From Candidatus Omnitrophota bacterium (GTDB lineage Bacteria > Omnitrophota > Gorgyraeia > Gygaellales > Profunditerraquicolaceae): 64,000 nucleotides of DNA. Of this stretch, positions 5,330 to 29,599 are shown in pieces. Each line of letters begins with the position of its first letter. The stretch's first letter is position 1. The notes under the pieces are model-generated. The model searched no databases and was not told the DNA's origin. It saw only the letters and a program-made list of their open reading frames with translations. The stretch lies in the NCBI GenBank assembly GCA_016867115.1, contig VGKG01000003.1, positions 673 to 64,672 on the forward strand, written 5' to 3'. A program made the position numbers and the translations under genes.

Positions 5330-6204
5330 TGAAAAACTATAAACTTGTTTTTCTTATACTTTTAAGTCTTTTTACTTTCGGCTGTCAGCCTAAAGCGGAG
5401 AAACAGAAGGCAGAGGAGAGCATTCCGGTAAGGGTGATCAAGGTAGGCCTGCAGGAATTGGCCGAGACCATCGACTACGTGGGTAATATCAGGGCTAAAG
5501 ACGAAGCCCTGATCTATCCCAAGGTGAGCGGTAAGATCATCGAAAAGGTCAAGGAGGACGGCGCGCCCGTGAATAAGGGCGAGGTGATCCTTTATATCGA
5601 CCGCGACGAGGTGGGGCTGAAGTTCGAGCGGGCCCCGGTTGAGAGTACGCTTACCGGGACCATAGGCAGGGTCTACGTGGATATCGGAGAGAATGTGGAC
5701 CCGCAGACCGCAGTCGCCCTGGTCGTGGATATGCACGAGGTAAAGACTGACCTTGATATCCCGGAAAAGTACCTGGCCAAGGTCTCGCTTGGACAGACGG
5801 CCAGGATCAGCGTGGATGCCTATCCCGCAGAAGAGTTTATGGGGAAGGTGACCAAGATCAGCCCGGTAGTGGATATGAATACCCGCAGCTCCCCCATTGA
5901 GATCACCGTGGCTAATCCCGGGCACCGGCTGAAATCCGGCATGTTTGCCAAGGTCAGCCTCATCGTACGCGAGAAAAAAGAGGTGCCGGTGATCATGAAA
6001 GAGGCGGTGATCGGCAAAGAGCCTGACCAGTGTGTCTTTGTGATCGAAGATAACAAGGCGCTTTTAAAGAAGATAAGCCTGGGTATCCGTCAGGGGCCGT
6101 ATTTTGAGGTAAGGCAGGGGTTAAAAGAAGGGGATTTAGTGGTAGTGATGGGCCAGCAGCGGCTTACCGAGGGCAGTCCCGTCAAGATAGAGGAGAATAA
6201 ATAA
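5329..6204 (+). CDS. efflux RND periplasmic adaptor (membrane fusion protein, HlyD family)
   Basis: Lipoprotein-like signal peptide plus biotinyl/lipoyl-like and beta-barrel MFP motifs. Translationally coupled (ATGA overlaps). Confidence 0.85.
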   Translation: MKNYKLVFLILLSLFTFGCQPKAEKQKAEESIPVRVIKVGLQELAETIDYVGNIRAKDEALIYPKVSGKIIEKVKEDGAPVNKGEVILYIDRDEVGLKFERAPVESTLTGTIGRVYVDIGENVDPQTAVALVVDMHEVKTDLDIPEKYLAKVSLGQTARISVDAYPAEEFMGKVTKISPVVDMNTRSSPIEITVANPGHRLKSGMFAKVSLIVREKKEVPVIMKEAVIGKEPDQCVFVIEDNKALLKKISLGIRQGPYFEVRQGLKEGDLVVVMGQQRLTEGSPVKIEENK

Positions 6205-9200
6205 TGAAGTTTGCGGAGTTCGGCGTAAAAAGGCCGGTCACCAACCTCATGATCTTCTTCTCTATTTTTGTCCTGGCCATGTACAGTTTCACGCGCCTGG
6301 GGATTGACATGATGCCTGAGATCGAGCCGCCGGTGATCACGGTGATCTCCGCTTACCCGGGAGCCAGCCCTGAAGACGTGGAAGTCAAGGTGACCGAGCC
6401 GCTGGAAAACCAGCTGGCCACTACTCCCGGCCTTGAGAAGATGACCTCGGATTCATTAGACGGGGTGTCTTTGATCACCCTGAAGTTCATCTGGGGGACA
6501 AACCTTGACGCCGCCTCCAATGACGTGCGCGACCGCATTGACCTGGCCAAGCGTTTCCTTCCGGATATCCCCGATGAGATGGATAACCCCTTTATCTACA
6601 AGTTCAATACCTCCAATATCCCCATCCTCTTTTTCGGGATCACCGCAAAACAATCCTATACCGACCTCTTTGACCTGGTGGATAAAAGAGTGGCTGATGC
6701 CCTGCGCCAGCTGCCCGGCGTAGGCACCGTCGAGCTGATCGGAGGGTTGGAACGGCAGGTGAACATCTGGATCGACCGCCAGCGCCTGGAAGGATACGGC
6801 TTCTCGATCCTGGATATAGAGGCCTCTCTAAGAAAAGAGAATGTCCAGCAGCCTCTGGGCAGGTTAAAGAGCGGGCTTACCGATTATCTTATCCGGCTGC
6901 CGGGTGAGTTCGCTGCTCCGGATGAGATCAATCAGGTGATCCTGGGAAGGCGCAACGGGAATCTGGTCTATCTAAAAGACGTAGCCAGGGTCGAGGACAG
7001 CTTCAAAGAGGTGACCCTGAACGTGCGTATCAGCAGGCAGCCCGGATTGCTGCTCATGGTGCAAAAACAGAGCGGCACAAATACCGTGGAGGTCGCCCGG
7101 CGCATCAGGGATAAACTCGATGAACTGGAGAAGGTCCTGCCTGCGGACGTCAAGATCTACACCATCTTTGATACTTCTAAAGACATCATTGATTCCCTGA
7201 ACTCCCTGAAGTCTACAGTCTGGGTGGGGATCATTCTGGTGGTCCTCGTAGTCTGGTTCTTTCTGCGGATGGCCCTGCCCAGCCTTATCGTTGCCCTGAC
7301 CATTCCTTTTTCCCTGCTCATCGCCTTTGTTTATCTGTTCTTAAGCGGCCGCACGGTAAATGTCATCAGCCTTTCGTCGCTGGCGATCGCAGCCGGGATG
7401 GTCGTGGATAACGCGATTGTAGTCGTGGATAACATCTATAGAAAATTAGAGAGGGGTAACCGGGCCCAGGAGGCTGCAATCTTCGGCACGCAGGAGATGT
7501 TCTTTGCGATCGCCGCCTCGACCTTTACCACTATCGTAGTCTTCCTGCCCATGCTTTTCATCCCCGGGGTGATCGGAGTGATGTTTGCTGAAATGGCAGT
7601 GATCATTTCCGCCACACTCCTGGGTTCTCTTTTTACCGCCTCGACATTCAGCCCCATGCTCTGTTCGCAGTGGATGAAAAAGCCGTACGCGCAAAAAGCA
7701 GACGGCGGATGGTTTGACAAGTTCTACAATTTTTCCGAAAGGATCTTCCGCTCGTGGGAGGAGTTTTACGCCCGGAACCTCGGGTTTTGCCTGCACCATA
7801 AAAAATTAGTGATCTTCGCTTTTTCCGGGGCTTTTATTTTTTCCCTGACCCTGCTTCCCTTTGTCGGCCATGAGTTTATTCCCGAGGAAGACACCGGAGA
7901 CCTGCGCCTGACTGCGCACCTGCCTTTAGGGACCCGGATCGAAGAAGCGGACAAGGTGGCCTCCAGGATCGAGGAGATGATCCGGGAGGATGTCCCGGAG
8001 GCGCGCTTTTATTTTTCCCGCACCGGAGAGACGGCGGGAAGGAGCAGGGCTGCGGGCCAGACTTCCGGAACGCACATCATTACTGCCGGCGCAAAGTTAG
8101 TCTCGAAGACTAAGCGCACCCGCAGCGCCAACGACGTAGCGCAGGCCCTGCGGCAGAAGATCAAAGAGATCCCCGGGGTCCTGAAGATCGATATGCAGGT
8201 GGGTAACCCCCTCGGCCGCATGATCACCGGCATGGGCGGGAAGGCGGTCCGGCTTGAGGTCATCGGCCACTCTTTTGAAGAGACGGACCGCGTAGCCAAT
8301 CAGATCAAGGGCCTGATGGAGAAGATCCCCGGCGCTGTAGATGTGGCAATTTCGCGAGAGTTCAACCGCCCGGAATTAAGGATCGAAATAGACCGCGAGA
8401 AGATCGGCAGCCTTGGCCTGACCATGGATACCATCGCCAACAGCCTGCAGGCTTATATTGCCGGCTCGGTTGCCAGCAAATACCGCGAAAAGGGAGAGAC
8501 CTATGATATCAATCTGCGCCTGGAAGAAGAGAACCGTAAAAAAATAGAAGACATCGAAAACCTGCCTTTGATCGCCGAGACCACCCAGTTTGTCAGCGCC
8601 CAGGCGCCGGTGAGCGCCCTGGCGCCGCAAATCGAGACTGCCCCGCCGGTCTCCCTGACTACGCTTAAGATCATCCGGCTCTCCAATGTCGCCAAGATCT
8701 ACGAGGTCAAGGCACCGGTAAGTATCGAACGCCAGAACCGCGAGAGGGTAGTCAGGGTAGAATGCAATACCTATAAGCGTTCATCGGGGAAAGTGGTCGA
8801 GGATATCCAAAAGGCGCTCTCCAGCATTGCCGTCCCCAAGGACATCATGATTAATTTCGGCGGCGAGGCAGAGGAGCAGAAAAAGGCCTTCCGGGACCTG
8901 GGCCTATTATTGATCTTAGGCATTATCCTTGTCTATATGATCATGGCCGCTCAGTTTGAGTCGCTTTTTGACCCCTTTATTATCATGTTCTCCATACCTT
9001 TCACCTTTATCGGCGTGATCTTAAGTTTTCTGGTTACCGGGATAACGCTAAACGTGATCAGTTACTTGGGCGTGATCATGCTTATGGGCATTGTGGTCAA
9101 TAACGCCATTGTCCTCATCAGCTACATTATCATCTTGCGCCACCGCGGCCAGACTATGTATGAGGCGGTGACTAATGCCGGAAGAGACAGGCTGCGGCCG

Positions 9201-9410
9201 GTTCTAATGACCACGATCACCACGTTGGTTGGACTCCTGCCTCTGGCTTTATTCCGGGGCGAAGGCTCGGAATCCTGGCAGCCGTTGGGAGTGACCATGT
9301 TCGGCGGGCTTTTAGTCTCTACCCTGATCACCATGCTTTTTGTGCCTACGCTTTATGCGCTCTTCCACAGAAAAGCAGCCGAGGCAGAAGCAGGAGGAAA
9401 AAGGAGATGA
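6204..9410 (+). CDS. efflux RND permease (AcrB/CzcA family)
   Basis: 1068 aa with 12 TM segments and large periplasmic loops, the typical RND transporter architecture. Confidence 0.9.
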   Translation: MKFAEFGVKRPVTNLMIFFSIFVLAMYSFTRLGIDMMPEIEPPVITVISAYPGASPEDVEVKVTEPLENQLATTPGLEKMTSDSLDGVSLITLKFIWGTNLDAASNDVRDRIDLAKRFLPDIPDEMDNPFIYKFNTSNIPILFFGITAKQSYTDLFDLVDKRVADALRQLPGVGTVELIGGLERQVNIWIDRQRLEGYGFSILDIEASLRKENVQQPLGRLKSGLTDYLIRLPGEFAAPDEINQVILGRRNGNLVYLKDVARVEDSFKEVTLNVRISRQPGLLLMVQKQSGTNTVEVARRIRDKLDELEKVLPADVKIYTIFDTSKDIIDSLNSLKSTVWVGIILVVLVVWFFLRMALPSLIVALTIPFSLLIAFVYLFLSGRTVNVISLSSLAIAAGMVVDNAIVVVDNIYRKLERGNRAQEAAIFGTQEMFFAIAASTFTTIVVFLPMLFIPGVIGVMFAEMAVIISATLLGSLFTASTFSPMLCSQWMKKPYAQKADGGWFDKFYNFSERIFRSWEEFYARNLGFCLHHKKLVIFAFSGAFIFSLTLLPFVGHEFIPEEDTGDLRLTAHLPLGTRIEEADKVASRIEEMIREDVPEARFYFSRTGETAGRSRAAGQTSGTHIITAGAKLVSKTKRTRSANDVAQALRQKIKEIPGVLKIDMQVGNPLGRMITGMGGKAVRLEVIGHSFEETDRVANQIKGLMEKIPGAVDVAISREFNRPELRIEIDREKIGSLGLTMDTIANSLQAYIAGSVASKYREKGETYDINLRLEEENRKKIEDIENLPLIAETTQFVSAQAPVSALAPQIETAPPVSLTTLKIIRLSNVAKIYEVKAPVSIERQNRERVVRVECNTYKRSSGKVVEDIQKALSSIAVPKDIMINFGGEAEEQKKAFRDLGLLLILGIILVYMIMAAQFESLFDPFIIMFSIPFTFIGVILSFLVTGITLNVISYLGVIMLMGIVVNNAIVLISYIIILRHRGQTMYEAVTNAGRDRLRPVLMTTITTLVGLLPLALFRGEGSESWQPLGVTMFGGLLVSTLITMLFVPTLYALFHRKAAEAEAGGKRR

Positions 9411-9697
9411 AGATGGTCATGGTCTGTTACAATGAGGCTATTGATATTGAGGTGATGGAGCTTTTGGGAGGGAGTGGCCTAAAAAATTATACCAAGGTCT
9501 GCGCTACCTTTGGTAGCGGCAATACTTCCGGAATACACCTTGGTAATGATATCTGGCCGGGTAAGAATAACCTGCTTTTTGTCGCCTGCCAGGAAAAAGA
9601 GGCAAAGGAGCTCCTCTCTGCAGTGCGAGAATTAAGGAAACAGCTTGGCAGAGAAGGGGTTAAGGCTTTCATTTTACCATTAGAAGAGCTCACCTGA
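9407..9697 (+). CDS. small PII-like (GlnB-fold) protein coupled to the RND pump (DUF3240-like)
   Basis: 96 aa. MKMVMVCYNEAIDIEVMELL...GSGNTSGIHLG has a beta-alpha-beta pattern reminiscent of PII-like proteins found downstream of CzcA-type pumps. Overlaps the RND stop (ATGA). Confidence 0.4.
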   Translation: MKMVMVCYNEAIDIEVMELLGGSGLKNYTKVCATFGSGNTSGIHLGNDIWPGKNNLLFVACQEKEAKELLSAVRELRKQLGREGVKAFILPLEELT

Positions 9698-9735: not shown

Positions 9736-9763
9736 TTGACAGCACCGCTTAAATAGGTATAAT
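9736..9763 (+). promoter_or_regulatory. sigma70-type promoter (TTGACA-16 nt-TATAAT) upstream of the PKS-like operon
   Basis: Consensus hexamers read directly (TTGACA 9736-9741, TATAAT 9758-9763), about 50 nt upstream of the first ORF at 9812. Confidence 0.5.
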
Positions 9764-9811: not shown

Positions 9812-10078
9812 ATGCAGTGGGAGAATAATACCGCACAAAGATTTCAGACGATGATCGCCAAGATCCCGGTTTTTCACCGCCACATCACCGAACAGGCAGT
9901 AGTGCGCCGGGCCCAGGAGATCGCCGCAAAGCGTAAGGCCAGCCAGATTGAAGAAGAGGATGTCATCGCCGCCTTCTTTTCGGATGTCCCCTCGCCCTTT
10001 TACAGCATGATGGTCAGGCTATTGGAGCAAAACGGTTTTGACTACAAGAAGTACGGCTTTCCCAGGAATAACAAATAA
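9812..10078 (+). CDS. small PCP_red-domain-like protein (protochlorophyllide reductase 57 kD subunit-like motif)
   Basis: W-x3-A-x2-R-x3-IAKIPVFHRHITEQAVVRRAQEIAAKRKASQIEEEDV fits the PF08369-like pattern. SD GGAGG upstream. Confidence 0.45.
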   Translation: MQWENNTAQRFQTMIAKIPVFHRHITEQAVVRRAQEIAAKRKASQIEEEDVIAAFFSDVPSPFYSMMVRLLEQNGFDYKKYGFPRNNK

Positions 10079-10084
10079 TCTACG

Positions 10085-11089
10085 ATGAAGATCGCGGTTA
10101 TCGGAGCAGGCGCAATCGGCGCCTTGGTTGCAGGGTATCTTAAAGCAAAAGATGCGGATGTATCTTTGGTGGCGCGGCCGGATTCTTTAGCCGTAATTAA
10201 GGATCAGGGGCTTGCGGTCTCCGGGGTAAGAGGAGACTTAAAGGTCAAGATCAGCGCTGAGCAGGCCTTAAGTTACCAGCCGGAACTGGTAATTTTAGCT
10301 ACCAAGACCCAGGACCTAGAGAACGCCCTGAAGCAGAATTTAAATTTCCTTAAGGATGCCACAATCTTGACTACACAAAACGGCGTAGCTGCAGACGGCA
10401 TAGTCGCCAGATACCTTCCGGAAGAAAAAATCATTTCTAGTATTGTCATGTTCGGCGCCACGCTCCTTGAGCCGGTAAGGATCGTGCATAATTTTGAGGG
10501 GAGCTGGATCATGGGGAGCGCTTTTGGCCAAAACGACGCCGAAGTCGTCAGGATAAGCGAGGTACTTAACCGCGCCTTTCCGACAATCGTCGCCGAAGAT
10601 ATCCGGGGGATGAAATACCTGAAGATCTTTGTGAACGCCAATAACTGCATCCCGGCGATATTAGGCACCAGCATGCAGGAGGCCTTTAGCAACCCCCGGA
10701 TCAGCCGGATCAGTATCGCTATCTGGAAGGAAGGCCTGGATATCGTAGGCAGATCCGGGATCAGCCTGACCTCTTTGCCGGATTTTCCCCTGGAACGCCT
10801 GACCGCCCTGGCCGCGCTGCCACTGGATGAGGCGGCTAAGATCTTTTCCGGCATCATGAGCAATTTAAGCAAAGAGCCGCTTTATGGCTCTATCCTCCAG
10901 AGCATCAAGAGAGGCAGGACTTCAGAAATAGATTACATTAACGGCGAGTTCAGCCGGCTGGCCGAGACGCAGAATTTAGCAGCGCCTTTAAATAAAAAAT
11001 TAGTGGAGATGGTGCACAGCGTCGAGCAGAATAAGAAGTTTTTCACGCCGGATGAGCTGGTCAGCTCAACCCGCGAGCTGATAAATTAA
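10085..11089 (+). CDS. ApbA/PanE-family 2-dehydropantoate 2-reductase-like NAD(P)H oxidoreductase
   Basis: N-terminal Rossmann MKIAVIGAGAIGALVAGYL. 334 aa. Ketopantoate-reductase family architecture. Confidence 0.75.
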   Translation: MKIAVIGAGAIGALVAGYLKAKDADVSLVARPDSLAVIKDQGLAVSGVRGDLKVKISAEQALSYQPELVILATKTQDLENALKQNLNFLKDATILTTQNGVAADGIVARYLPEEKIISSIVMFGATLLEPVRIVHNFEGSWIMGSAFGQNDAEVVRISEVLNRAFPTIVAEDIRGMKYLKIFVNANNCIPAILGTSMQEAFSNPRISRISIAIWKEGLDIVGRSGISLTSLPDFPLERLTALAALPLDEAAKIFSGIMSNLSKEPLYGSILQSIKRGRTSEIDYINGEFSRLAETQNLAAPLNKKLVEMVHSVEQNKKFFTPDELVSSTRELIN

Positions 11090-11098
11090 GGAGTAAAG

Positions 11099-11698
11099 AT
11101 GATCAAATCACCTTTTCCCAAGTTAAAATTGACTGTCATGAATGTTTACGGGCCCTGTTATCACGGCTACAAGGTGGGCGATGAACTGATCCTGGATGAT
11201 TTTACCCACGGCCCTAAATATTTTTGTCTGGGCCTGGCGCATGCGCTCTTTCCCGTAGCCTATGCCTTAAGTTTCGGGGCAAAGTTCCCTTTCCGGGACA
11301 ACCAGCGTTCGTTACTGGTCACCTGTCCTGACGGAGGCAAGCTTGAGTTTAAAGCCGAGGTCCTGGATAAGGAGAGGGATGTCGAAAACGTGCCTAAGGA
11401 CCCTGAACACAGGGGCCCGAACCCCAAGAAGATGATCATTGAGGTGGTCAAGGCAAAAGGAAAATGCACCTTCGGCTATAAAGTCGGCGATAAGTGGGAG
11501 ACGCAAGGATTAAAATGCATCCCCGGATTTTGCGGAGCGGCGTTTCACACCGCGTTCCCTGCGCTCTTTGCCCTGAATTTCGGGGCGAAGTTTTTCTTTA
11601 TGCAGGATCCGGATTCTATCGATACAGTCACCTGCCCCGACGGAGGGAATATCATATTTAAGGTAACGCGGGCAAAAGAAGAGGCCAAGGAGAAATAG
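11099..11698 (+). CDS. TIGR04076-family protein, tandemly duplicated domain
   Basis: Two homologous halves, each with C-x-x-G-YKVGD ... C ... A(H/F)xxFP..AL.FGAKF.F ... CPDGG..FK. Compare FCLGLAHALFPVAYALSFGAKFPF...TCPDGG with FCGAAFHTAFPALFALNFGAKFFF...TCPDGG. Confidence 0.6.
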   Translation: MIKSPFPKLKLTVMNVYGPCYHGYKVGDELILDDFTHGPKYFCLGLAHALFPVAYALSFGAKFPFRDNQRSLLVTCPDGGKLEFKAEVLDKERDVENVPKDPEHRGPNPKKMIIEVVKAKGKCTFGYKVGDKWETQGLKCIPGFCGAAFHTAFPALFALNFGAKFFFMQDPDSIDTVTCPDGGNIIFKVTRAKEEAKEK

Positions 11699-11701
11699 TC
11701 A

Positions 11702-12964
11702 ATGCAAAAACGTAGAGTAGTGATCACTGGGATAGGCGTAATCTCGCCTAACGGTATCGGCAAGCCCGCCGTCTATCAGGCGATGATCTCCGGTGTGTCC
11801 GGGGTGAAGCGGGTGGACGGTTTTGATGTCTCCATATTTAATACCAAGATTGCTGCCGAGGCGCGCGATTTTGACCCCTTTAAGCTGGGCCTCACCCACG
11901 AAGAAGTGATGCGTATGGACCGCTACGTGCAGTTCGGCGTGGTGGCTGGCGATATGGCCATAAAGGATAGCGGCCTGGATTTTTCAAAAGAAGACCCCGA
12001 GCGCATCGGCGTCTGCCTGGCTAACGCCATCTGCGGCACCAAATACATGGAAGAGGAGTTCGCCCTGGTTACTGACGACGGCAAGAAACCGATCGACCCC
12101 TCAAAGGTGCGGCCTGATCTTTACGATGCGGCGATGTTCAATACGCCCTCAATTGAGATCAGCGCGCGTTACGGTTTTAAGGGTATCTGCGATACTCTCT
12201 CCACGGGTTGCACTGCCGGAACGGATTCTCTGGGGTTTGGCCTTGAGACGATCCAGGACGGCGAGCAAGATGTCATGATCTGCGGCGCTGCCGAAGCGCC
12301 GATCACTCCGATCACTTTTGGCGCCTTTGACGTGGTAAGTGTTCTTTCAGTGCGTAACGATACTCCGGAAGCGGCATCACGACCATTTGATAACCGGCGC
12401 GACGGTTTTGTCCTCTCCGAAGGCGCGGGGATCCTGGTCCTTGAAGAACTGGATCATGCCCTGAAACGCAATGCCCGCATTTATTGCGAGGTCCTCGGCT
12501 TTGGCACCAGCTGCAACGCCTTCCACATGACTGACCTTCCTTCTGACGGAGGGGCGATGGTAAGTTGCATCAGCCTCGGCTTGAAAGACGCAGGGGTTAA
12601 GCCGGATGAGGTCGATTATATCAGCGCCCACGGCTCATCCACCAGGATGAACGACATCTTTGAGACCAATGCCTACAAGACGATCTTCGGCGAGTATGCC
12701 TATAAGCTGCCGATCAGTTCTCTTAAGTCCATGATCGGACATCCCCTGGCCGCGGCTAACGCCGTGGAGATGACTGTCTGTGCGATGATCTTCCAGAAGG
12801 ATATCCTTCCTCCGACGATAAACCAGGAGGAGAAAGACCCTTTATGCGATCTGGATTATATCCCAAACTCAGCCCGGAAACAGAAGGTAAACACAATACT
12901 TAAGACCTCAAGCGGATTTTCGGGGATACATTCCTCACTTATATTAAGGAGATACAATGGGTAA
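11702..12964 (+). CDS. beta-ketoacyl synthase (KS-alpha / FabF-like) with intact Cys-His-His triad
   Basis: ITGIGVISP N-terminus, active-site TGCTAG, AHGSSTRMND and SMIGHPLAAA histidines. Confidence 0.85.
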   Translation: MQKRRVVITGIGVISPNGIGKPAVYQAMISGVSGVKRVDGFDVSIFNTKIAAEARDFDPFKLGLTHEEVMRMDRYVQFGVVAGDMAIKDSGLDFSKEDPERIGVCLANAICGTKYMEEEFALVTDDGKKPIDPSKVRPDLYDAAMFNTPSIEISARYGFKGICDTLSTGCTAGTDSLGFGLETIQDGEQDVMICGAAEAPITPITFGAFDVVSVLSVRNDTPEAASRPFDNRRDGFVLSEGAGILVLEELDHALKRNARIYCEVLGFGTSCNAFHMTDLPSDGGAMVSCISLGLKDAGVKPDEVDYISAHGSSTRMNDIFETNAYKTIFGEYAYKLPISSLKSMIGHPLAAANAVEMTVCAMIFQKDILPPTINQEEKDPLCDLDYIPNSARKQKVNTILKTSSGFSGIHSSLILRRYNG

Positions 12965-14192
12965 GCAGATCGCAGTCACCGGTATAGGCGTAGTCAGTCC
13001 TTCGGGCATAGGCAAGAGGCAGCTCTGGGCGAATATTAAATCCGGACGCCCTTTTATCAAGGAGATTACTCGTTTCGACGCTTCCAAATACCCCAGTCAC
13101 ATCGCAGGGCAAATAGATGAACTGGAAAAATATAGCAACATTTCAGAGCGGCTGCTCAAAAAGATCGACGCCTTCTCGCACATGGCCCTAATCGCTTCGG
13201 AGCTTGCCCTGCAAGATGCCGGCATTGATATTAAGAAAGAGGACCCGAACCTGGTCGGCATATTTTTAGGCAATGCCTTAGGCGGCTGGCTTTATGCCGA
13301 GACAGAGCTACGCGATATGTATATTGAAGGCCGCGAAGGGGTCTCGCCTTACATGGCCTCTGCCTGGTTTCCGGCTGCGCCACAGGGCCAGGTTTCTATT
13401 TACTACGGGATAAAGGGATTCAGCAAGACCGTAGTCGCAGACAGGGCAAGCTCCCTTATGGCCATCGGATATGCCAGAAAGGTCCTAAGCAAGGATAAAT
13501 TGAACATGATCTTAGCCGGCGGCATGGAAGCTCCGGTCACCCCCTACGCGCTTTTATGCTGCAACACCTATGGCTCTCTTTCTACGGATAATGCTCATCC
13601 ACAAGCCGCTTACCGGCCCTTTGATAAAAAACGTAGCGGCTTTGTCATTGGCGAGGGCGCGGGGATCGTCGTCATGGAAGGATTAGAGCGGGTGAGGGCA
13701 AGAGGGGCAAATATTCAGGCCCTGATCACCGGTTACGGCGCAACCTGCGACGGAATAGACAGGATCAATCCTGCTTCTGACGGGAAAGAATTAGCCCGGG
13801 CAATCCAGATAGCGCTTAGTGATGCGGGCATAGGCCCTGAGGGAATCGATTATATCAGCCTGGACGGTATTGCCGTTGGTCTCTGGGATAGCACCGAAGT
13901 AAAGGCGATCAAGAGTGTCTTCGGCAGCCGCGCTAAAGAGATACCGGTAAGCTGCCCGAAATCCATGTTCGGCAATCTCCTGGGCGCCTCCGGTGCCCTG
14001 GATATGATCATCACTATTTCGGCTATGGAAAACAGCCTTATTCCTCCGACTATCAATTTGGATGAGCCGGCAGAAACCGGCCTGAATTATATAGGTAAGG
14101 AAGCCAGACCCCATAAAATAAATAAAGCCCTGATCATCTCCCGCGGCAGAGGCGGGATCAATTCGGCTTTAGTGGTTGAGAAAGGAGCATAA
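12957..14192 (+). CDS. KS-like partner lacking the catalytic triad (chain-length-factor / KS-beta-like)
   Basis: KS fold (VTGIGVVSP...), but the Cys position reads ADRASS, AHGTxT is replaced by SLDGIAVG, and GH is replaced by GNLLGASG. An 8-nt overlap with the upstream KS points to translational coupling. Confidence 0.75.
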   Translation: MGKQIAVTGIGVVSPSGIGKRQLWANIKSGRPFIKEITRFDASKYPSHIAGQIDELEKYSNISERLLKKIDAFSHMALIASELALQDAGIDIKKEDPNLVGIFLGNALGGWLYAETELRDMYIEGREGVSPYMASAWFPAAPQGQVSIYYGIKGFSKTVVADRASSLMAIGYARKVLSKDKLNMILAGGMEAPVTPYALLCCNTYGSLSTDNAHPQAAYRPFDKKRSGFVIGEGAGIVVMEGLERVRARGANIQALITGYGATCDGIDRINPASDGKELARAIQIALSDAGIGPEGIDYISLDGIAVGLWDSTEVKAIKSVFGSRAKEIPVSCPKSMFGNLLGASGALDMIITISAMENSLIPPTINLDEPAETGLNYIGKEARPHKINKALIISRGRGGINSALVVEKGA

Positions 14193-14194
14193 GA

Positions 14195-15655
14195 ATGAAG
14201 ATTTTATTCGTCATGCCTAAAGTAGGCGCCTGGGCAACGCACGGAATCCACCGTTCACCGAACCAGTTGTATGCGCACTGGGCAGCTTATGCGCGCGAAA
14301 AAGGTTATACGGACGTCTCGGTCATCGACGGAAGGGCGCTTGAGATCCCCATGGACCAGTTGATCGAACAGGTCAAAGCCAAGAATCCGGATATCGTGGT
14401 CATGGGCGAGCAGATCCATGGTTACGGCGGCTACGGGGTCTTACGCCATTTCCGGGACGCGGCTATCGGGATCAAAAAAGTATTACCTAGAACAAAGATA
14501 ATCCTGGGCGGGCTATGGTATTCGGCGATGCCTGTGCCGACCCTGGAAGAGATCCCCGCGGTGGATTTTGTGGTCATGGGCGAAGAAGAGTCTTTCGGCG
14601 ACCTGATCGAGGCGATAGATAAGAATAAGCCTCTTAAAGATGTGGGTGGAGTCACCTCGCGCATCGACGGCTCAATCGTCATGGGGCCGCATAAGCCGCT
14701 GATGACTGACCTGGATAAACTGCCTTTACCGGCATACGACTTATTCCCCATGGATAAGTATGTGGGGCACACCTACTGGAAGCCCTTTGTAGATATGATC
14801 ACCTCGCGCGGCTGCCCTTCTGCCTGCACCTTCTGCTATGAATGGGACCAGTTTGACCCGCGCTCGCCGTCAGACTTCCTGAAATGGCGCGCAAAATCAC
14901 CGGAGAGGGTCATCGAAGAGCTGGAAGTGCTGCATAAGAAATACGGGGTAAAGGTCGTGGTGATCCAGGACGATAATTTTAACGTTGATCCTGCTAGGGT
15001 GAAGAGGTTCTGTGAGCTGAAGAAGCAGAAGAACATCCCGACTAAATGGGTCTCCTTAGGCAGGGCAGTGGACTGGGTGAATTGCGAGTCGATCCTGCCC
15101 CTAATGAAAGAAACGGGCTTGTTTATGGGAGTATTCGGGATAGAAGTCACCACACAGGATGAGCTGAAGAGGATTGCTAAAGGAACCACCATCGAGCAGA
15201 TCAAGAAGACTATCGAGATCCTGCGCCGTAACGATATCGCTATTGTCGCCGATATCATGATCGGGTTTGACTACGATACCGAGGCGATCATCAAGCAGCG
15301 CTTTGAGTTTGCTGATGCTGTGGACCCGGACGTCTTGTGGATCGGCTATGTGACTCCGGCACCCAACTCGCCGATGTGGCGCATTTCGCTAAAGAAAAAC
15401 TGGATCGATCCCAAGAAGGTGGACTTCAGCACCTGGGATTTCCTGCATCCGGTGATCCCCACGGATCATCTCACTACCGAGGAGCTGGGAAGGCTTGGCG
15501 CCTGGTGCATGCGCGAGTTCTTCTCAAAGCCGGGAAGGATCAACCGGATCATGGAGAGCAATTTTGACCCCCTGGCCAAGCTCTGTTTTCAGGATGTCAT
15601 GGCCGGAGTAGGCAAGTGGGAAGCAGCCGCCACCAAAGGCGAAGTACAGATCTAG
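14195..15655 (+). CDS. B12-binding-domain radical SAM enzyme
   Basis: N-terminal cobalamin-binding-like domain followed by a CPSACTFC (Cx3Cx2C) radical SAM cluster motif. 486 aa. Confidence 0.85.
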   Translation: MKILFVMPKVGAWATHGIHRSPNQLYAHWAAYAREKGYTDVSVIDGRALEIPMDQLIEQVKAKNPDIVVMGEQIHGYGGYGVLRHFRDAAIGIKKVLPRTKIILGGLWYSAMPVPTLEEIPAVDFVVMGEEESFGDLIEAIDKNKPLKDVGGVTSRIDGSIVMGPHKPLMTDLDKLPLPAYDLFPMDKYVGHTYWKPFVDMITSRGCPSACTFCYEWDQFDPRSPSDFLKWRAKSPERVIEELEVLHKKYGVKVVVIQDDNFNVDPARVKRFCELKKQKNIPTKWVSLGRAVDWVNCESILPLMKETGLFMGVFGIEVTTQDELKRIAKGTTIEQIKKTIEILRRNDIAIVADIMIGFDYDTEAIIKQRFEFADAVDPDVLWIGYVTPAPNSPMWRISLKKNWIDPKKVDFSTWDFLHPVIPTDHLTTEELGRLGAWCMREFFSKPGRINRIMESNFDPLAKLCFQDVMAGVGKWEAAATKGEVQI

Positions 15656-15663
15656 ACCGGTCA

Positions 15664-15732
15664 CGGGACAGATCCCGCCAGACCTATTACTTGCGCTGCT
15701 AAGGGACCTGTCCCGACCGCGAGGAGGTAAAG
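15664..15732 (+). promoter_or_regulatory. structured 5' leader element, copy A (upstream of ACP)
   Basis: Near-identical to 15973-16046. Contains GGGACAG...CTGTCCC inverted arms and ends in GACCGCGAGGAGGTA with SD. Read directly. Confidence 0.45.
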
Positions 15733-15957
15733 ATGAAAGAGAGGATCAGAGAAGTCTTAAGTAATCTCTTGAAAGTAAAACCCGAAGAGCTTAAGGACGA
15801 TGTTTCTTTACAGGATTCTATCGGCGTAGACTCGACCGAAATGGTTGAGACAGTGATTGCGCTGGAGAAGGCCTTCGGGAAGAAGTTAAGCACCAAGGAG
15901 ATCACCAAGTTCTCTTCGATAAGCGATATCGAAAAAGTAATTCAATCTAAAGCTTAG
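15733..15957 (+). CDS. acyl carrier protein
   Basis: 74 aa with the GVDSTEMVE phosphopantetheine-attachment serine motif. Confidence 0.85.
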   Translation: MKERIREVLSNLLKVKPEELKDDVSLQDSIGVDSTEMVETVIALEKAFGKKLSTKEITKFSSISDIEKVIQSKA

Positions 15958-15972
15958 GACCATATGAGACAT

Positions 15973-16046
15973 GTCGCGGGACAGATCCCGCCAGAGTTAA
16001 TACCTGCGGTACTAAGGGACCTGTCCCGACCGCGAGGAGGTACTCA
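15973..16046 (+). promoter_or_regulatory. structured 5' leader element, copy B (upstream of cyclase gene)
   Basis: Shares the identical 31-nt 3' segment CTAAGGGACCTGTCCCGACCGCGAGGAGGTA and 5' GGGACAGATCCCGCCAGA with copy A. A TTG start follows. Confidence 0.45.
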
Positions 16047-16880
16047 TTGAAGATAATCGACTTAAGCCTGCCAATCGACGACAAGGCCTTTGAGGTCCAC
16101 CGTGTGGATATTGAGCGGGTCTCACATTCGGCGGGAGTAGAAAAGTTCAATCGGGTAATCATGGGCAAGACCCTGAAGGGCAGGCTTCAGTATCTTTTAG
16201 GTAAGCGCATCCTGAAGAAAGAAGACCTTCCGGATGAGGAGTTCCTTTCTCTCGAAGTAATCCATTCTCCGGTGCACATCGGCACACACCTGGATTATTC
16301 TTTCCACTACGGCTCAAAGTCAGAGGGCCGCCCCGCCAAGACCGCGGAGGAGATCCCGCTTGAGTGGTGTTATGCTGACGGCGTGAAACTGGACCTGACG
16401 CATAAGAAGCCAAACGAAGTGGTCAAAGCCCCGGACCTGGAGCAGGCCTTAAAAATGATCAATTATACGCTTAAGCATAATGACATTGTGCTCCTGCATA
16501 CAGGTGCGGATAAACTCTTTGGTTCTGCGAGATACTTCTCTGAATACCCCGGAATAGACATTTCCGCGATAGATTATCTCTTAGACCGCGGGGTCAAGAT
16601 TTTCGGCGTGGACACCATGGGCATTGACCGGCCTTACAAGTTCATGCTTAAGGAGTTCCTGGAGGAGAAAAAGCCGCTTTATCCGGCGCACTTTTACGGA
16701 AGGAAGAGAGAGTTTATCCATATCGAGCGCCTAAGCAATCTGGATAAGCTGCCGGCAGCCGGCTTTAAAGTCATCTGTTTTCCGGTGAAGATAAAATATA
16801 CCGGCGCTGCCTGGTCCAGGGTAGTGGCAGTACTAAGCGAGATAAGCCCTGAACGCGAAATGAGCCAAAAGGAGGTTTGA
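16047..16880 (+). CDS. PF04199 'putative cyclase' family protein (kynurenine-formamidase-like fold)
   Basis: HSPVHIGTHLDYSFHYG metal-binding motif (HxGTHxDxPxH-like). TTG start directly after the leader SD. Confidence 0.7.
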   Translation: MKIIDLSLPIDDKAFEVHRVDIERVSHSAGVEKFNRVIMGKTLKGRLQYLLGKRILKKEDLPDEEFLSLEVIHSPVHIGTHLDYSFHYGSKSEGRPAKTAEEIPLEWCYADGVKLDLTHKKPNEVVKAPDLEQALKMINYTLKHNDIVLLHTGADKLFGSARYFSEYPGIDISAIDYLLDRGVKIFGVDTMGIDRPYKFMLKEFLEEKKPLYPAHFYGRKREFIHIERLSNLDKLPAAGFKVICFPVKIKYTGAAWSRVVAVLSEISPEREMSQKEV

Positions 16881-16881
16881 G

Positions 16882-17421
16882 ATGGGACATACCTGCAATT
16901 CTATTATCATCAACGCCCCTTACGACTTAGTCTTTGATATCTCAAATGACATCCCGCGCTGGACAGAATTATTCGGCACAGAATACAAAAAGGCAGAGGT
17001 ACTGGAGAAAAAAGACAATAAGATCACCTTCCGCCTCACTGATGAGGACGATAAGTCCTGGGTCTCCTGGCGCCTCCTTTTTAAAGACAAATACTTCGCC
17101 TATGCCCAGCGCCATGAACCGTTATTCCCTTTTAAATACATGAAGATTGTTTGGCTCTATACCCCTAAGCCCGAGGGTGTGGCTTTGGCTACTGCGCAGA
17201 AGCGCGTACCGGCCGGTCCGATAAGGCCGGGTGAAGGAGGCCAAACCACGGACCCCTGTCCTGTTGAGATGGCCTGGATCCAGCACTTTGAGATGGATGA
17301 GAAGGCTAAGTTCAATGACCAGCAGATCGAGGGTTTTATTAATGAAGGCTCCCGCCACAACCTGAAGATCTTTAAAGAGATCATCGAGCGGGAAGCAGCT
17401 ACGGCTAAAGTTAAGAGTTAA
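16882..17421 (+). CDS. SRPBCC-superfamily polyketide cyclase/aromatase-like protein
   Basis: 179 aa with a START/Bet v1-like N-terminal pattern (IIINAPYDLVFDISNDIPRW...), immediately downstream of the cyclase. Confidence 0.65.
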   Translation: MGHTCNSIIINAPYDLVFDISNDIPRWTELFGTEYKKAEVLEKKDNKITFRLTDEDDKSWVSWRLLFKDKYFAYAQRHEPLFPFKYMKIVWLYTPKPEGVALATAQKRVPAGPIRPGEGGQTTDPCPVEMAWIQHFEMDEKAKFNDQQIEGFINEGSRHNLKIFKEIIEREAATAKVKS

Positions 17422-17430
17422 GCGGATCTG

Positions 17431-18552
17431 GTGAAAAAAAGCACATTTCTCATCCTTTGTCTTGAAGGCGCGATCCTCTCCTTCAATGTCGCCGCAGCCG
17501 CTGCCTTAGTTCCTTCGATCGCCAGGGATTTTGCTCTTTCTCAGTTCGTGGTAGGCAAAATGATCTGGCTGTACATGTTTCCGTACGGCATAGCTGCTTT
17601 AATTTATGGTCCCCTGGTAAGGGCGATTGATGCAAAGAAGATAGAACTGGTTTGCATATTTTTCTTTTCTCTATCAAATCTTCTAGCCGCCCTATCCGGA
17701 AACATTTATACTTGTTTCATTGCCCGGTTTTTTATGGGACTTTTTGGCGCTTCAGTCATACCGCTTGGACTAGTATTAATTGCAAATCATATTGAGCAGC
17801 AGAGGCGCGGTAAGTATGTGGGGATTTTTTTTAGTGCAACCTTTGTGGCTTCGCTCTTAGGCTTATTTTTAAGTGGTATCATTTCCTGGCGACTGATTTA
17901 TCTTATCCCTGCAATTGCCGGCCTTTTTCTTACCGGTATCATTTATCTTTATCTGCCCAGTTTCAAAGGAGATGTTACGGGCTTTAAGATAAATTATTTT
18001 GCTGCCCTGGGTGATAAAAGAATGCTTTTTATCTTTGCCTATATATTTGTTATCAGCCTTCTTTATCACGGCATCCAGCAGTGGCTGGGAGTTTATTTCT
18101 CAGACAGGTTCGGCTTTAGCCAGTTTTTGATCAGCGCACTCATTACTCTGACCAGCTTAAGCGGTATTTTCGGAGAGGCCTTTGGCGGAGTGCTGGCAGA
18201 TAGGTTCGGCAGGATACGCACTGCGAATCTAGGCGTTCTTTTGATGGTTATCAGCGCATTGCTTTTGATCTTGAAGCTCCCTTTTGTTCTTCTGGCGCTG
18301 TTAATGATCGTCTGGGGTTTAGGCTGGACCTTTAATCATGCCGGGATATCTACGGTGTTGACAGACCTGCCTCGGGAGTTCTTGAATGAGGCAGCGAGTT
18401 TAAACAGCAGCGTGCGTTTTATTTCAGGCGGCGTGGGTGCTGCGCTCGGCGGAGTGCTGATGCAGAGGGGTTTTAGCGTCGGGTTTGTGGTTTTCGGCGT
18501 GAGCCTGGCCGCATTGTTATTTTTAAGCAAAACATTGGAAAGCGGGAGGTAG
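17431..18552 (+). CDS. MFS transporter
   Basis: 373 aa with about 12 TM segments and the MFS signature around GPLVRAIDAKK. Confidence 0.8.
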   Translation: MKKSTFLILCLEGAILSFNVAAAAALVPSIARDFALSQFVVGKMIWLYMFPYGIAALIYGPLVRAIDAKKIELVCIFFFSLSNLLAALSGNIYTCFIARFFMGLFGASVIPLGLVLIANHIEQQRRGKYVGIFFSATFVASLLGLFLSGIISWRLIYLIPAIAGLFLTGIIYLYLPSFKGDVTGFKINYFAALGDKRMLFIFAYIFVISLLYHGIQQWLGVYFSDRFGFSQFLISALITLTSLSGIFGEAFGGVLADRFGRIRTANLGVLLMVISALLLILKLPFVLLALLMIVWGLGWTFNHAGISTVLTDLPREFLNEAASLNSSVRFISGGVGAALGGVLMQRGFSVGFVVFGVSLAALLFLSKTLESGR

Positions 18553-18554
18553 TC

Positions 18555-19328
18555 ATGGAGGATTTAAAAGGTAAAGTAGCCATAGTCACCGGTGCCAGCC
18601 GCGGGATAGGTAAGGCGCTTGCCTCTACCGCCGCAAGTTTAGGGATTAATCTAGCCATTGCCGCGCGCCAGGAAGGGCCGTTAAAAGAGACCGCGGATGA
18701 GATCGCCAAAAAATATAAGGTCGAGGTCCTGGCTGTACCCTGCGACGTGACGAAGCTGGGTGATCTTGAGAACCTGGTCAATAAGACCAGGGAAAGATTC
18801 GGCAAAATAGATATCCTGATCAATAATGCCGGAGTCTCCAGCCAGTACCCCTTTGACAAGCAGCCGTTAGAGGACTTTGAGAAGCTGGCGCACACGAATT
18901 ACTTAGGCTATGTGCGGCTCATCCGCCTGGTGATCAACGAGATGGTCGAAAGAAAATCCGGGGCCATCATCAATATGGTCTCAGGCTCGACCCTTTGCGA
19001 TCCCCTGCCCAGGAACTTTATCGTCTATAGTTCCTTAAAGGTGGGGCTGCGAGCTTTTTCTAAAGGCCTCTTCTGGGAGCTGCGCGACCACGGGATCAAG
19101 GTCACCTCGATCCTGCCCGGGGTAACGGATACGGACCTGACCGGAAAATTAAGCGAGATCACTGCCGATGCCGGGCGCCTGATGACTACCGAGGCGATCG
19201 AGAATGCGGTGAGGTTTGCCCTGACTGTCCCGGCAAATGTCTGTCCGTTAGAGATTGCGGTGATCAACCAGCAGACGCCCTGGACTGCGCCTGTAATCCC
19301 CTATAAACAAGCTCACCCGGAGAAATAA
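18555..19328 (+). CDS. SDR-family oxidoreductase (ketoreductase-like)
   Basis: GKVAIVTGASRGIGKA (TGxxxGxG), NNAG, catalytic YSSLK. Confidence 0.85.
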   Translation: MEDLKGKVAIVTGASRGIGKALASTAASLGINLAIAARQEGPLKETADEIAKKYKVEVLAVPCDVTKLGDLENLVNKTRERFGKIDILINNAGVSSQYPFDKQPLEDFEKLAHTNYLGYVRLIRLVINEMVERKSGAIINMVSGSTLCDPLPRNFIVYSSLKVGLRAFSKGLFWELRDHGIKVTSILPGVTDTDLTGKLSEITADAGRLMTTEAIENAVRFALTVPANVCPLEIAVINQQTPWTAPVIPYKQAHPEK

Positions 19329-19330
19329 CG

Positions 19331-19750
19331 ATGGATAAGCGCGACCTGAAGAACTTAAAAAAGAGGTACCTGGTCTGGCTCTATAAGAACACCAAAGAGG
19401 CCTTTGACCGGTATGAGCGTAAGTTCACCCAGTTAGATATTGATAAGTTTATGCTCGCGGAGATGGAGAAGGAGGTAGAAAGCTCCTTCATGCCTGCCGA
19501 GCTTGAAGGAGTGGCTAAGTTTATCGAAGACTTCCGCAATTACATCGAAGAAAAAGAAAAATCCTGCCTTGAGCTCAAATATCAGGATAAGAAGATCAAT
19601 CCCGAGTTCCTTTTCCTGGATATGAAACTGAGGGCCGTAGAGAAGGCGATTCAGAGCGAGCTGGGGAGTAAAGCCCTGGATGAGATAAAGGAGCTTTACC
19701 AGCAGGAGATGCTTAAAAGGATCATGACTGAGCGCGAAGAAAAACGTTAA
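19331..19750 (+). CDS. hypothetical charged/coiled-coil protein
   Basis: 139 aa, K/E-rich, in the operon, no recognisable family. Confidence 0.4.
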   Translation: MDKRDLKNLKKRYLVWLYKNTKEAFDRYERKFTQLDIDKFMLAEMEKEVESSFMPAELEGVAKFIEDFRNYIEEKEKSCLELKYQDKKINPEFLFLDMKLRAVEKAIQSELGSKALDEIKELYQQEMLKRIMTEREEKR

Positions 19751-20562
19751 TGGCGACAACTAAAGCAGCCTATCAAATCTTTATTCTTCTTGCGCTTATC
19801 GCTGGCATCATCATGTATTTTAGATTCATTGAGCGCCGCACCCTCTTTTTCCCGGCCAAGGAGTTTGATTATACGCCGGCAGCCCTTAAGCTGGAATACG
19901 AAGAAGTAAGTTTTAAGACCAAAGATAATGTAGAGATCAATGCCTGGTTTGTTCCGGCCAGGGATGCTAAGTTTACCGTGCTCTTTGCTCACGGCAATGC
20001 CGGAAATATCAGCCACCGCGTGGAAAAGATCGATTTTTTCCATGAGTTAGGTTTGAATGTCCTGATCTTTGATTACCGGGGATATGGCAAGAGCAGGGGT
20101 TCGCCTTCTGAAAAGGGTTTATATAAAGATGCCCAGGCTTCCTATGAATATCTTTTATCGCGCGGCATTAAGCCGGATGAGATCATCGGCTACGGAGAGT
20201 CTATCGGAGGTGCGGTGATCATTGATCTTGGCTCAAGGAATAAACTGACAGCCCTGATCTCTGACAGCACGCCCAGCTCCGCAAAGGACATGGTCAGGAT
20301 CATTTATCCCTTTCTGCCTTACTGGGTGTTTTCTGTGCGCATGGACTCTTTGAGCAAGGTGAAAGCGATCCACTACCCTAAGCTTTTTATCCATAGCGTA
20401 AATGATGAGATCGTGCCTTTTAAATTAGGGAAGAAGCTTTTTGAATCCGCGCCCCTGCCTAAGGAATTCCTGCAGATCCACGGAGGGCACAACAGTTGCT
20501 TTTTTGAATCAGAGGATGTGTTAAAAGAAAAAGTCAGCGCTTTTCTAAAAGGGCTTAAATAA
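19750..20562 (+). CDS. alpha/beta hydrolase (S9/BAAT-like)
   Basis: N-terminal TM segment, HGNAG oxyanion region, GYGESIGG nucleophile elbow, C-terminal His. Confidence 0.75.
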   Translation: MATTKAAYQIFILLALIAGIIMYFRFIERRTLFFPAKEFDYTPAALKLEYEEVSFKTKDNVEINAWFVPARDAKFTVLFAHGNAGNISHRVEKIDFFHELGLNVLIFDYRGYGKSRGSPSEKGLYKDAQASYEYLLSRGIKPDEIIGYGESIGGAVIIDLGSRNKLTALISDSTPSSAKDMVRIIYPFLPYWVFSVRMDSLSKVKAIHYPKLFIHSVNDEIVPFKLGKKLFESAPLPKEFLQIHGGHNSCFFESEDVLKEKVSAFLKGLK

Positions 20563-21479: not shown

Positions 21480-21730
21480 TGCCCCTGTCGGTTTTCTCGC
21501 TCAGGTCGATTTTGCCCACAACTGCTTTTATACAGGGCACGCCAATGATCTTTCGCATTTCGGCGGCTGAAGAACTCGTCGCATTTGCTCTAGCAAATGC
21601 TCCTCAGGCAGCTTCAGCCGTGCCTGTTTTGTCGCTTCGCTCCACAGGCATTCCCTCAATGCTCAAGCTCCATTGGCTAAAATCGACATTCGCTCGAAAA
21701 TCCGCCAGGTGCATTTATGATATTTAACAA

Positions 21731-29294: not shown

Positions 29295-29380
29295 TGGTGC
29301 CGGAGAAGGGACTTGAACCCCCATGAGGTTGCCCTCAGTAGCTTTTGAGGCTACCGCGTCTGCCATTTCGCCACTCCGGC
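29295..29380 (-). tRNA. tRNA-Leu (anticodon CAA)
   Basis: Reverse complement GCCGGAG...CTCAAAA...long variable arm...GGTTCAAGTCC...CTCCGGCACCA. 86 nt with encoded CCA. Confidence 0.85.
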
Positions 29381-29523: not shown

Positions 29524-29599
29524 GGGGCCGTAGCTCAATTGGGAGAGCACTTGCATGGCATGCAAGGGGTCGAGGGTTCGAATCCCTCCGGCTCCACCA
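29524..29599 (+). tRNA. tRNA-Ala (anticodon GGC)
   Basis: GGGGCCGTAGCTCAATTGGGAGAGC...CTTGCATGGCATGCAAG...GGTTCGAATCC...CGGCTCCACCA. G3:U70 identity pair present. Confidence 0.9.

Follow-up and report, generated by a model that had tools for sequence, protein, structure and literature searches.

A ketosynthase pair with one catalytic and one triad-less member

The window analyzed here is a stretch of 64,000 nucleotides from a Candidatus Omnitrophota bacterium (assembly GCA_016867115.1, contig VGKG01000003.1, positions 673 to 64,672), and all coordinates below refer to it. An operon of tightly packed genes on its forward strand encodes two consecutive proteins of the ketosynthase (KS) fold, namely, a KS with an intact catalytic triad and, directly downstream, a protein in which this triad has been lost (hereafter, the partner). 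From its sequence and gene context, the partner is very probably a non-catalytic KS-beta subunit, of the chain length factor (CLF) type, within a polyketide synthase (PKS) of type II. The pair and the associated translation signal are the following:

11702-12964 (+): catalytic KS-alpha with both KS Pfam domains and the residues C170 (12209-12211), H310 (12629-12631) and H347 (12740-12742)
12946-12951 (+): Shine-Dalgarno-like AAGGAG within the 3' end of the KS gene, 5 nt before the partner ATG, read from the sequence
12957-14192 (+): triad-less KS-fold partner, CLF-like (KS-beta), with R163, D303, N340, R396 and R398, and with K335 kept

The open reading frame (ORF) of the partner encodes 411 amino acids and matched PF00109 (1.3e-43) and PF02801 (8.6e-27) of Pfam. 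BLASTP aligned it with the 420-aa upstream KS at 32% identity over 414 columns (E = 3e-85), free of gaps around all three catalytic motifs. STGCTAG of the KS pairs with VADRASS of the partner, so that C170 is replaced by R163 (codon 13443-13445, AGG); SAHGSST pairs with SLDGIAV, replacing H310 by D303 (codon 13863-13865); and GHPLAAA pairs with GNLLGAS, replacing H347 by N340 (codon 13974-13976). The same three positions were substituted in an alignment of the partner with Listeria FabF, in which, furthermore, both Phe residues of the FabF motif SFGFGG correspond to Arg in the partner (R396 and R398, the latter at the place of the gating Phe), and K335, D311 and E314, which belong to the former second shell, have been retained. 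Both alignments bear out the loss of Cys, His and His that had been claimed in a first-pass annotation of this DNA. The first and third of its motif pairings were also correct, whereas the second was one residue off (AHGSST pairs with LDGIAV, not with SLDGIA), which leaves intact the conclusion that this His is missing.

Canonical CLFs carry Gln at the Cys position. As had been stated at the outset, this Gln is missing from the partner: Arg163 occupies the position, and Arg is also found there in all 120 of its closest relatives, that is, the nearest database clusters. The partner sequence VVA-[D/E]-x-A around the former Cys presumably resembles the corresponding CLF motif. KSQ-type proteins have Gln for Cys and keep both His, whereas the partner reads Arg/Asp/Asn. 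It also lacks the combination of Cys-His-His and gating Phe that marks housekeeping FabF/KAS II enzymes, and it scored below the fabF equivalog cut-offs (TIGR03150, 378.9 bits versus 493.75; NF005589, 367.2 versus 387).

The start codon of the partner, ATG at 12957-12959, is contained in the final codons of the KS gene, which ends with TAA at 12962-12964, an overlap of 8 nt. The signals for the translational coupling proposed previously are therefore present, in the form of this start/stop overlap and a separate AAGGAG for the partner.

Conservation of the partner across Omnitrophota

The identical partner protein was found on 10 independent contigs, and the contig of the window is carried by the JGI metagenomes 3300020222 and 3300020109. 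Among the 120 closest relatives (79-100% identity), the triad columns read R/D/N without exception, R396 and R398 are likewise invariant, and 148 of the 411 positions do not vary at all, with residues 101-160 being nearly all invariant. The partner is under strong purifying selection, concentrated in residues 101-160. The first-pass annotation had allowed for a corrected alignment, for example, after the repair of a frameshift or sequencing error, that would restore the Cys and His residues; instead, R/D/N recurs in the 120 relatives, the gene is intact in 80 species genomes, and no repair of a frameshift can bring back Cys or His. Four Cys residues (C201, C202, C264 and C333, the last two residues before Lys335) are also invariant in the Omnitrophota family, and none of them is invariant in a 15-sequence alignment of wider relatives.

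A scan covering one genome per species identified 171 genomes encoding a relative of the partner, and the comparisons of Omnitrophota loci were based on the best 80 of these, with an intact partner gene and 79-85% identity. All 80 are labeled Candidatus Omnitrophota or Omnitrophica or, in some automatically named assemblies, 'uncultured Planctomycetales'; the titles 'uncultured Planctomycetales bacterium' on L010, L013, L019, L032 and other loci (80-84% identity) are probably automatic or outdated labels. The GC content of the 80 loci ranges from 38 to 50%. The KS and partner genes are adjacent in all loci in which the contig covers the KS gene, and the entire block, from a DUF2621-like gene to an amidohydrolase_2 gene, is syntenic wherever the contig is long enough. 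Across the 80 loci, the median identities to the window proteins are 88% for the B12-binding radical-SAM enzyme encoded next to the partner, 86% for the short-chain dehydrogenase/reductase (SDR), 83% for the KS, 82% for the TIGR04076 protein, 81% for the partner, 77% for the cyclase, 75% for the acyl carrier protein (ACP), 67% for both the resistance-nodulation-division (RND) pump and the MtnA-like isomerase, and 62% for the PanE-like protein. Thus, with medians of 81% and 83%, the dead subunit is almost as constrained as the live one.

Gene content of the operon

The other features of the operon, upstream and downstream of the pair, are the following:

9736-9763 (+): predicted promoter-like TTGACA-16-TATAAT, agreeing with the sigma-70 consensus at 12/12 positions and located in the 114 nt that precede the first operon gene
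9812-10078 (+): protein of 88 aa that partially matches DUF2621, encoded at the start of the conserved block; found in 65 Omnitrophota loci at a median identity of 67%
10085-11089 (+): homologue of PanE/ApbA-family NAD(P)H-dependent 2-oxoacid/ketone reductases; PF02558 and PF08546, TIGR00745 at 176 bits (cut-off 141)
11099-11698 (+): 199-aa, Cys-containing protein with two TIGR04076 repeats; 99.8 bits over two stretches, median identity 82% in 74 loci
14195-15655 (+): B12-binding radical-SAM enzyme, BchE/HpnJ-like, between partner and ACP; PF02310 and PF04055
15733-15957 (+): ACP of 74 aa with a GVDSTEM motif; PF00550
16047-16880 (+): 'putative cyclase' by Pfam (PF04199), metal-dependent hydrolase fold, the family known as OxyN in the type II PKS literature (PMC7693217)
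16882-17421 (+): SRPBCC aromatase/cyclase of the TcmN/WhiE type; WhiE ARO/CYC 3TL1 at 9.8e-21, TcmN 2REZ at 3.9e-20, and a weak Polyketide_cyc match
17431-18552 (+): major facilitator superfamily (MFS) transporter, putative exporter; found at 70% query coverage or more in 37 of 80 Omnitrophota loci, a set that includes many truncated contigs
18555-19328 (+): SDR-family reductase, candidate ketoreductase; median identity 86%
19331-19750 (+): conserved 139-aa protein matching no family; found in 45 loci at a median identity of 55%
19750-20562 (+): alpha/beta hydrolase; seen in only 3 other Omnitrophota loci
20562-21479 (+): Amidohydrolase_2 family protein, encoded by the last gene in common with the Clostridium, Paenibacillus and deltaproteobacterial clusters

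The radical-SAM protein is the most conserved of the block (the median of 88% was obtained over 68 loci), and it scored below all equivalog cut-offs, including TIGR02026 (203 bits versus 481) and TIGR04072 (69 versus 360). All further ACP models likewise scored below their cut-offs on the 15733-15957 product. A dehydratase, an enoyl reductase or FabZ was not found among the operon genes. Because it is present in only 3 other Omnitrophota loci, the alpha/beta-hydrolase gene appears to have entered the operon as a lineage-specific insertion. Promoter-like sites as a whole were no more numerous in the region than in shuffled controls, and only the site at 9736-9763 is perfect. The surroundings of the operon consist of housekeeping genes (AccA, LeuRS, MurJ, RF, SecA and Lnt).

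Several additional features of these proteins were recorded. Each TIGR04076 repeat of the protein encoded directly upstream of the KS contains a conserved Cys and a TCPDGG motif, and a 196-aa counterpart precedes the KS in a deltaproteobacterial locus, L004, where the PanE/ApbA-like reductase is syntenic as well. The TcmN/WhiE-type cyclase matches solved cyclases over residues 2-101 only and continues into a Pro/Gly-rich segment (residues ~100-140) without a counterpart in these structures.

Fold and evolutionary relationships

An AlphaFold2 model of the partner, built from the 15-sequence alignment, reached a mean predicted local distance difference test (pLDDT) score of 90.2. Searching with this model, Foldseek returned Bacillus subtilis FabF as the best match (template modeling score, TM, of 0.95-0.96; 40% identity), followed by other FabFs and then by the actinorhodin KS (1TQY_A) and CLF (1TQY_B; TM 0.93, 36% identity). 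Single-sequence and profile searches of solved structures produced the same ranking, with 1TQY_B at 5e-76, outside the top five; a 58-residue query around the partner motif had no solved match at E <= 0.001. Thus, the partner is a little-diverged FabF-like fold without the FabF chemistry rather than a strongly divergent protein. By contrast, the best solved relatives of the upstream KS are the actinorhodin KS-alpha (1TQY_A, 4.7e-113) and AntD (6SMO_B, 3.2e-109), and every FabF ranks lower.

Model confidence was lowest at residues ~110-140 (pLDDT 58-71), the only such stretch, which is located within the nearly invariant 101-160 segment. In FabF and 1TQY, the latter region comprises the dimer interface and acyl tunnel. 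The combination of strong constraint and poor modeling at residues 110-140 would fit a segment that becomes ordered only in a heterodimer or at an obligate interface.

In a library of representatives at 50% identity, the nearest relatives outside the Omnitrophota family were 58% identical, and the following ones at most 46%. Most of the triad-less proteins among the single-domain matches at 40-58% identity contain D-R-A, with Arg in the Cys column. The former His columns vary among these Arg-type partners (D/E/H/A/N/S and N/H/D/S, respectively): the combination is R/E/H in Clostridium beijerinckii and C. puniceum, R/H/H in Ktedonobacter racemifer, R/D/H in Archangium, and R/D/N in Paenibacillus and in deltaproteobacterial metagenome-assembled genomes (MAGs). 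A core consisting of KS, partner, ACP, PF04199 cyclase, SRPBCC protein and amidohydrolase_2 repeats around the 39-57% identical partners of a deltaproteobacterial MAG, C. beijerinckii and Paenibacillus.

In a neighbor-joining tree of 41 sequences (100 bootstraps; weak deep nodes; assembled without canonical actinobacterial CLFs), the triad-less partners separate from all Cys-His-His KSs with 86% bootstrap support, and the window partner groups with those encoded in the clusters of Clostridium, Ktedonobacter, Archangium and Paenibacillus. Partners from Omnitrophota and from Deltaproteobacteria form a pair (93%), and the KS-alphas of four clusters form a single clade (100%). The KS and partner trees are congruent. 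Furthermore, a protein of 869 aa (P0122) is a natural KS-partner fusion, with the N-terminal half in the KS-alpha clade (90%) and the C-terminal half among the partners. The congruent trees and the fusion indicate that the pair has been inherited as a unit and goes back to an ancient duplication that different phyla have in common rather than to recent copying of the local KS. The initial description of the partner as a 'divergent' CLF holds only in a relative sense: it is closer to FabF than to the actinorhodin CLF, and Arg is common in the non-actinobacterial clade.

Beyond the shared core, the clusters outside Omnitrophota contain further genes. In L004, where the partner is 57% identical, there are two aldehyde:ferredoxin oxidoreductase genes and a gene for a phytoene-desaturase-like flavoprotein (4851-6824, 14177-16156 and 17180-18430), and a B12 radical-SAM gene is located upstream of the minimal PKS rather than inside it. 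The Paenibacillus locus L008, with an R/D/N partner, encodes two HemN-like radical-SAM proteins, a U32-family protein and a flavodoxin-like reductase (15666-21248), a gene set that suggests oxygen-independent tailoring of an aromatic product.

A predicted KS-beta subunit and its possible function

The interpretation of the two genes as a pair of the KS-alpha/KS-beta type, already offered by the first-pass annotation, is supported by the proximity of the KS to 1TQY_A and 6SMO_B, by the presence of an ACP and of OxyN-family and TcmN/WhiE-type cyclases in the operon, and by the congruent trees and the P0122 fusion. In its fold, the missing active-site Cys and the gene context, the partner displays the features of a CLF other than the canonical Gln, which is already known to be absent from AntE. 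Thus, given the AntE exception, Gln at the Cys position would define the canonical CLF subgroup and not the functional class. The 'purely structural' role suggested earlier for the partner is plausible, given that the partner retains neither the nucleophile nor either His nor the gating Phe, although R163, D303 and N340 are themselves invariant. The arrangement KS-CLF-ACP-TcmN-OxyN has been described as the 'ancestral' layout of non-actinomycete type II PKSs (PMC7693217), and the cluster, as predicted from its genes, fits this layout of aromatic type II PKSs.

Residue loss, fold, gene context and conservation were observed directly, and homology and context together suggest how the pair might work. 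The overlap of stop and start codons and a separate Shine-Dalgarno sequence would keep production of the partner in step with that of KS-alpha, and the two proteins would assemble into a heterodimer. Using C170, H310 and H347, KS-alpha would iteratively condense malonyl units, with decarboxylation, on the ACP encoded at 15733-15957, while the partner would supply the other half of the dimer interface and close the acyl tunnel, thereby setting the chain length. The former active site of the partner is probably filled by a charged network (R163/D162/D303/R396/R398) and would bind no acyl chain; we infer an Arg163-Asp303 salt bridge and closure of the pocket. Because the partner has no Gln, priming would most likely occur by decarboxylation of malonyl-ACP in the KS-alpha site, a route demonstrated for the anammox heterodimer, in which the dead subunit likewise lacks Gln; AntE, with Asp, is another precedent for priming in the absence of Gln. 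Folding of the resulting poly-beta-ketone would fall to the two cyclases, of the TcmN/WhiE type and of the OxyN family, and its tailoring to the SDR, the PanE-like reductase, the B12 radical-SAM enzyme and the amidohydrolase-2 protein, yielding a predicted aromatic polyketide.

Several observations weigh against a non-catalytic KS-beta subunit of a type II PKS. FabF resembles the partner more closely than the actinorhodin CLF does, in sequence as well as in structure. The operon contains no recognizable malonyl transferase, phosphopantetheinyl transferase (PPTase) or starter-unit enzyme. Finally, the invariance of R163, D303, N340, R396 and R398 could mean that a function has been retained and that these residues do more than fill a dead pocket.

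Alternative explanations

An active partner is one such possibility, in which R163, D303 and N340, together with R396 and R398, would form a new site, for example, one that holds malonyl-ACP or a carboxylated intermediate by its carboxylate and catalyzes or steers decarboxylative priming in place of Gln. The invariance of all five residues in the 120 relatives, the recurrence of Arg at the Cys position in 36-58% identical partners from five other lineages and the retention of the second-shell residues K335, D311 and E314 would suit such a site. However, both His, which drive malonyl decarboxylation in ketosynthases, have been lost, the former His positions vary among Arg-type partners in a manner unlike that of a fixed catalytic site, and heterodimers with Asp (AntE, PMC6638757) or Val/Thr (anammox, bioRxiv 10.64898/2026.05.19.726425) are functional, so that we consider a new site improbable. 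A further alternative, a decaying KS duplicate (pseudogene) or residue losses that are mere artefacts of sequencing or frameshifting, has a practically negligible probability. Nothing other than the loss of the catalytic residues themselves speaks for it, and it was rejected in view of the intact 411-aa frame, the identical protein on 10 contigs, the 79-85% identity across 80 species genomes with loci of 38-50% GC, and the invariance of 148 of 411 positions in the 120 relatives. Moreover, the partner is only 32% identical to its own KS, and the tree points to an ancient duplication common to other phyla.

Alternatively, the pair might serve a fatty-acid-like or unusual-lipid pathway, as does the anammox cluster with its active FabF2, dead FabFmut, dedicated ACP and cobalamin radical-SAM enzyme. 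The FabF-like character of the partner is compatible with this, as are the B12 radical-SAM gene between partner and ACP, the most conserved of the block, the conservation of the block in 80 Omnitrophota species genomes, its position amid housekeeping genes, and the phytoene-desaturase-like gene of the related locus L004. Nevertheless, a lipid product appears very improbable given that the operon lacks a dehydratase and an enoyl reductase, that the conservation of the pair extends to both an OxyN-family cyclase and an aromatase/cyclase of the TcmN/WhiE type, and that the KS is closest to KS-alphas of aromatic PKSs. The comparison with anammox bacteria itself also argues against it: the radical-SAM protein reaches 69 bits where the ladderane-type TIGR04072 requires 360, the anammox chains 9S5H_B and 9S5H_C match worse than ordinary FabFs (PDB entries 9S5H/9S5I being tied to the anammox preprint by subject only), and the gene order is opposite, with the dead copy upstream in anammox (bioRxiv 10.64898/2026.05.19.726425).

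Comparison with characterized systems

The closest named relatives that do not come from MAGs are the partners of Clostridium beijerinckii and C. puniceum (P0129/P0271; 44-45% identity), which also have Arg at the Cys position but, unlike the window partner, keep the second former His. The Clostridium partner gene directly follows that of a catalytic KS, in a cluster with PF04199 and SRPBCC cyclases, an ACP and amidohydrolase_2; this cluster additionally contains PPTases, KS III, CMD, DUF362 and DUF169 genes, and those for B12 radical-SAM, PanE-like and TIGR04076 proteins are missing from it. Since ClrB and 'ClrB Cp' of clostrubin biosynthesis have been listed as clostridial CLFs that diverged anciently (PMC7693217), the Clostridium partner probably corresponds to ClrB.

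AntD/AntE, which produce the anthraquinone AQ-256 in Photorhabdus (PDB 6SMO), are likewise a non-actinomycete KS-CLF pair with the ancestral layout (PMC7693217). AntE has Asp in place of Gln (PMC6638757) where the window partner has Arg, so that both lack Gln. AntD is the second-best solved match of the window KS; AntE was not among the 60 best solved matches of the partner. The ant cluster is not known to contain a radical-SAM gene. In the actinorhodin complex 1TQY, the KS chain is the best solved match of the window KS, whereas the CLF chain has Gln at the position of Arg163. The CLF of the Ktedonobacter racemifer KS-CLF is assigned to the 90% cluster of P0147, a protein with Arg in place of Cys. 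Like the window partner, to which it is ~40% identical, this CLF is a member of the triad-less clade, but it keeps both His. This KS-CLF has been expressed in Escherichia coli (bioRxiv 10.1101/2020.05.18.102780).

The anammox amxFabF2/amxFabFmut heterodimer, in which the dead subunit has Val/Thr, decarboxylates malonyl-ACP (bioRxiv 10.64898/2026.05.19.726425). It resembles the window pair in combining an active KS and a dead FabF-like subunit lacking Gln with a dedicated ACP and a cobalamin radical-SAM gene, and the closest structural homologue of its dead subunit is B. subtilis FabF as well. However, the anammox cluster includes FabZ, has no cyclases and carries the dead copy upstream, whereas the operon of the window encodes cyclases, no FabZ and a dead copy downstream, and the two radical-SAM enzymes are not orthologous. 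The defining set of anammox ladderane cluster I, namely, amxFabZ, a phytoene-dehydrogenase homologue, a TIGR04072-type radical-SAM enzyme and an upstream dead copy, is not that of the operon.

Implications

That ketosynthases of type II PKSs have dead, KS-like partners is textbook knowledge. The present finding is mostly confirmatory: this kind of protein pair is known, versions without Gln have been published, and KS-CLF pairs of Ca. Omnitrophica were cataloged in 2023 (PMC10132072). One database source also names a close relative of the partner 'Actinorhodin polyketide putative beta-ketoacyl synthase 2'. We found no comment in the searchable papers on Arg at the Cys position of CLFs, and this detail may be unreported. 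Arg is the prevailing state at the former Cys in a broad non-actinobacterial clade of partners that includes producers of known aromatic polyketides; it is a property of the whole clade and not of the window gene. Its prevalence implies that the model of Gln-dependent priming would not generalize to these systems.

More unusual are the strong conservation across Omnitrophota and the presence of a B12 radical-SAM gene within the minimal PKS. Synteny in 80 Omnitrophota species genomes, with core proteins at 81-88% identity, is uncommon for a secondary-metabolite cluster. We therefore mention a broader, rather speculative reading, which we deem possible but on the whole unlikely: the pair would form the center of a type II PKS that is inherited vertically throughout the lineage, has core genes better conserved than several of their neighbors in the block, includes a cobalamin radical-SAM enzyme of its own and makes a core metabolite of uncultured anaerobes and not an occasional antibiotic, with Arg163 representing an old, Gln-independent type of CLF. 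Such a metabolite might be, for example, an anaerobically tailored aromatic polyketide acting as a redox carrier or cofactor. Literature searches for a product of an Omnitrophota type II PKS gave nothing specific. We know of no natural product from this uncultured phylum, which makes the operon at 9812-21479 a well-defined target for heterologous expression.

Neighboring genes in the window

In an Rfam scan of the window, no riboswitch or other RNA element was detected near the operon, and the only matches were two tRNA genes, at 29298-29380 (-) and 29524-29596 (+). For an 82-aa ORF following the amidohydrolase gene (21479-21727), counterparts are all but absent, and it may not represent a true gene. 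Upstream of the operon (4061-9697) are genes for an outer-membrane factor, an HlyD-type adaptor, an AcrB-type RND pump and a 96-aa P-II-like protein, which are syntenic with the block in the 11-15 loci that extend this far and are preceded by MarR and PadR regulator genes. The PKS block is followed at 21944-24605 by genes for a nucleoside phosphorylase, an MtnA-like isomerase of the IF-2B family and a class II aldolase. This trio keeps its position in many Omnitrophota loci and in L004 (18447-21242), and it looks like a route for the salvage of 5'-deoxyadenosine or methylthioadenosine, by-products of radical-SAM enzymes.

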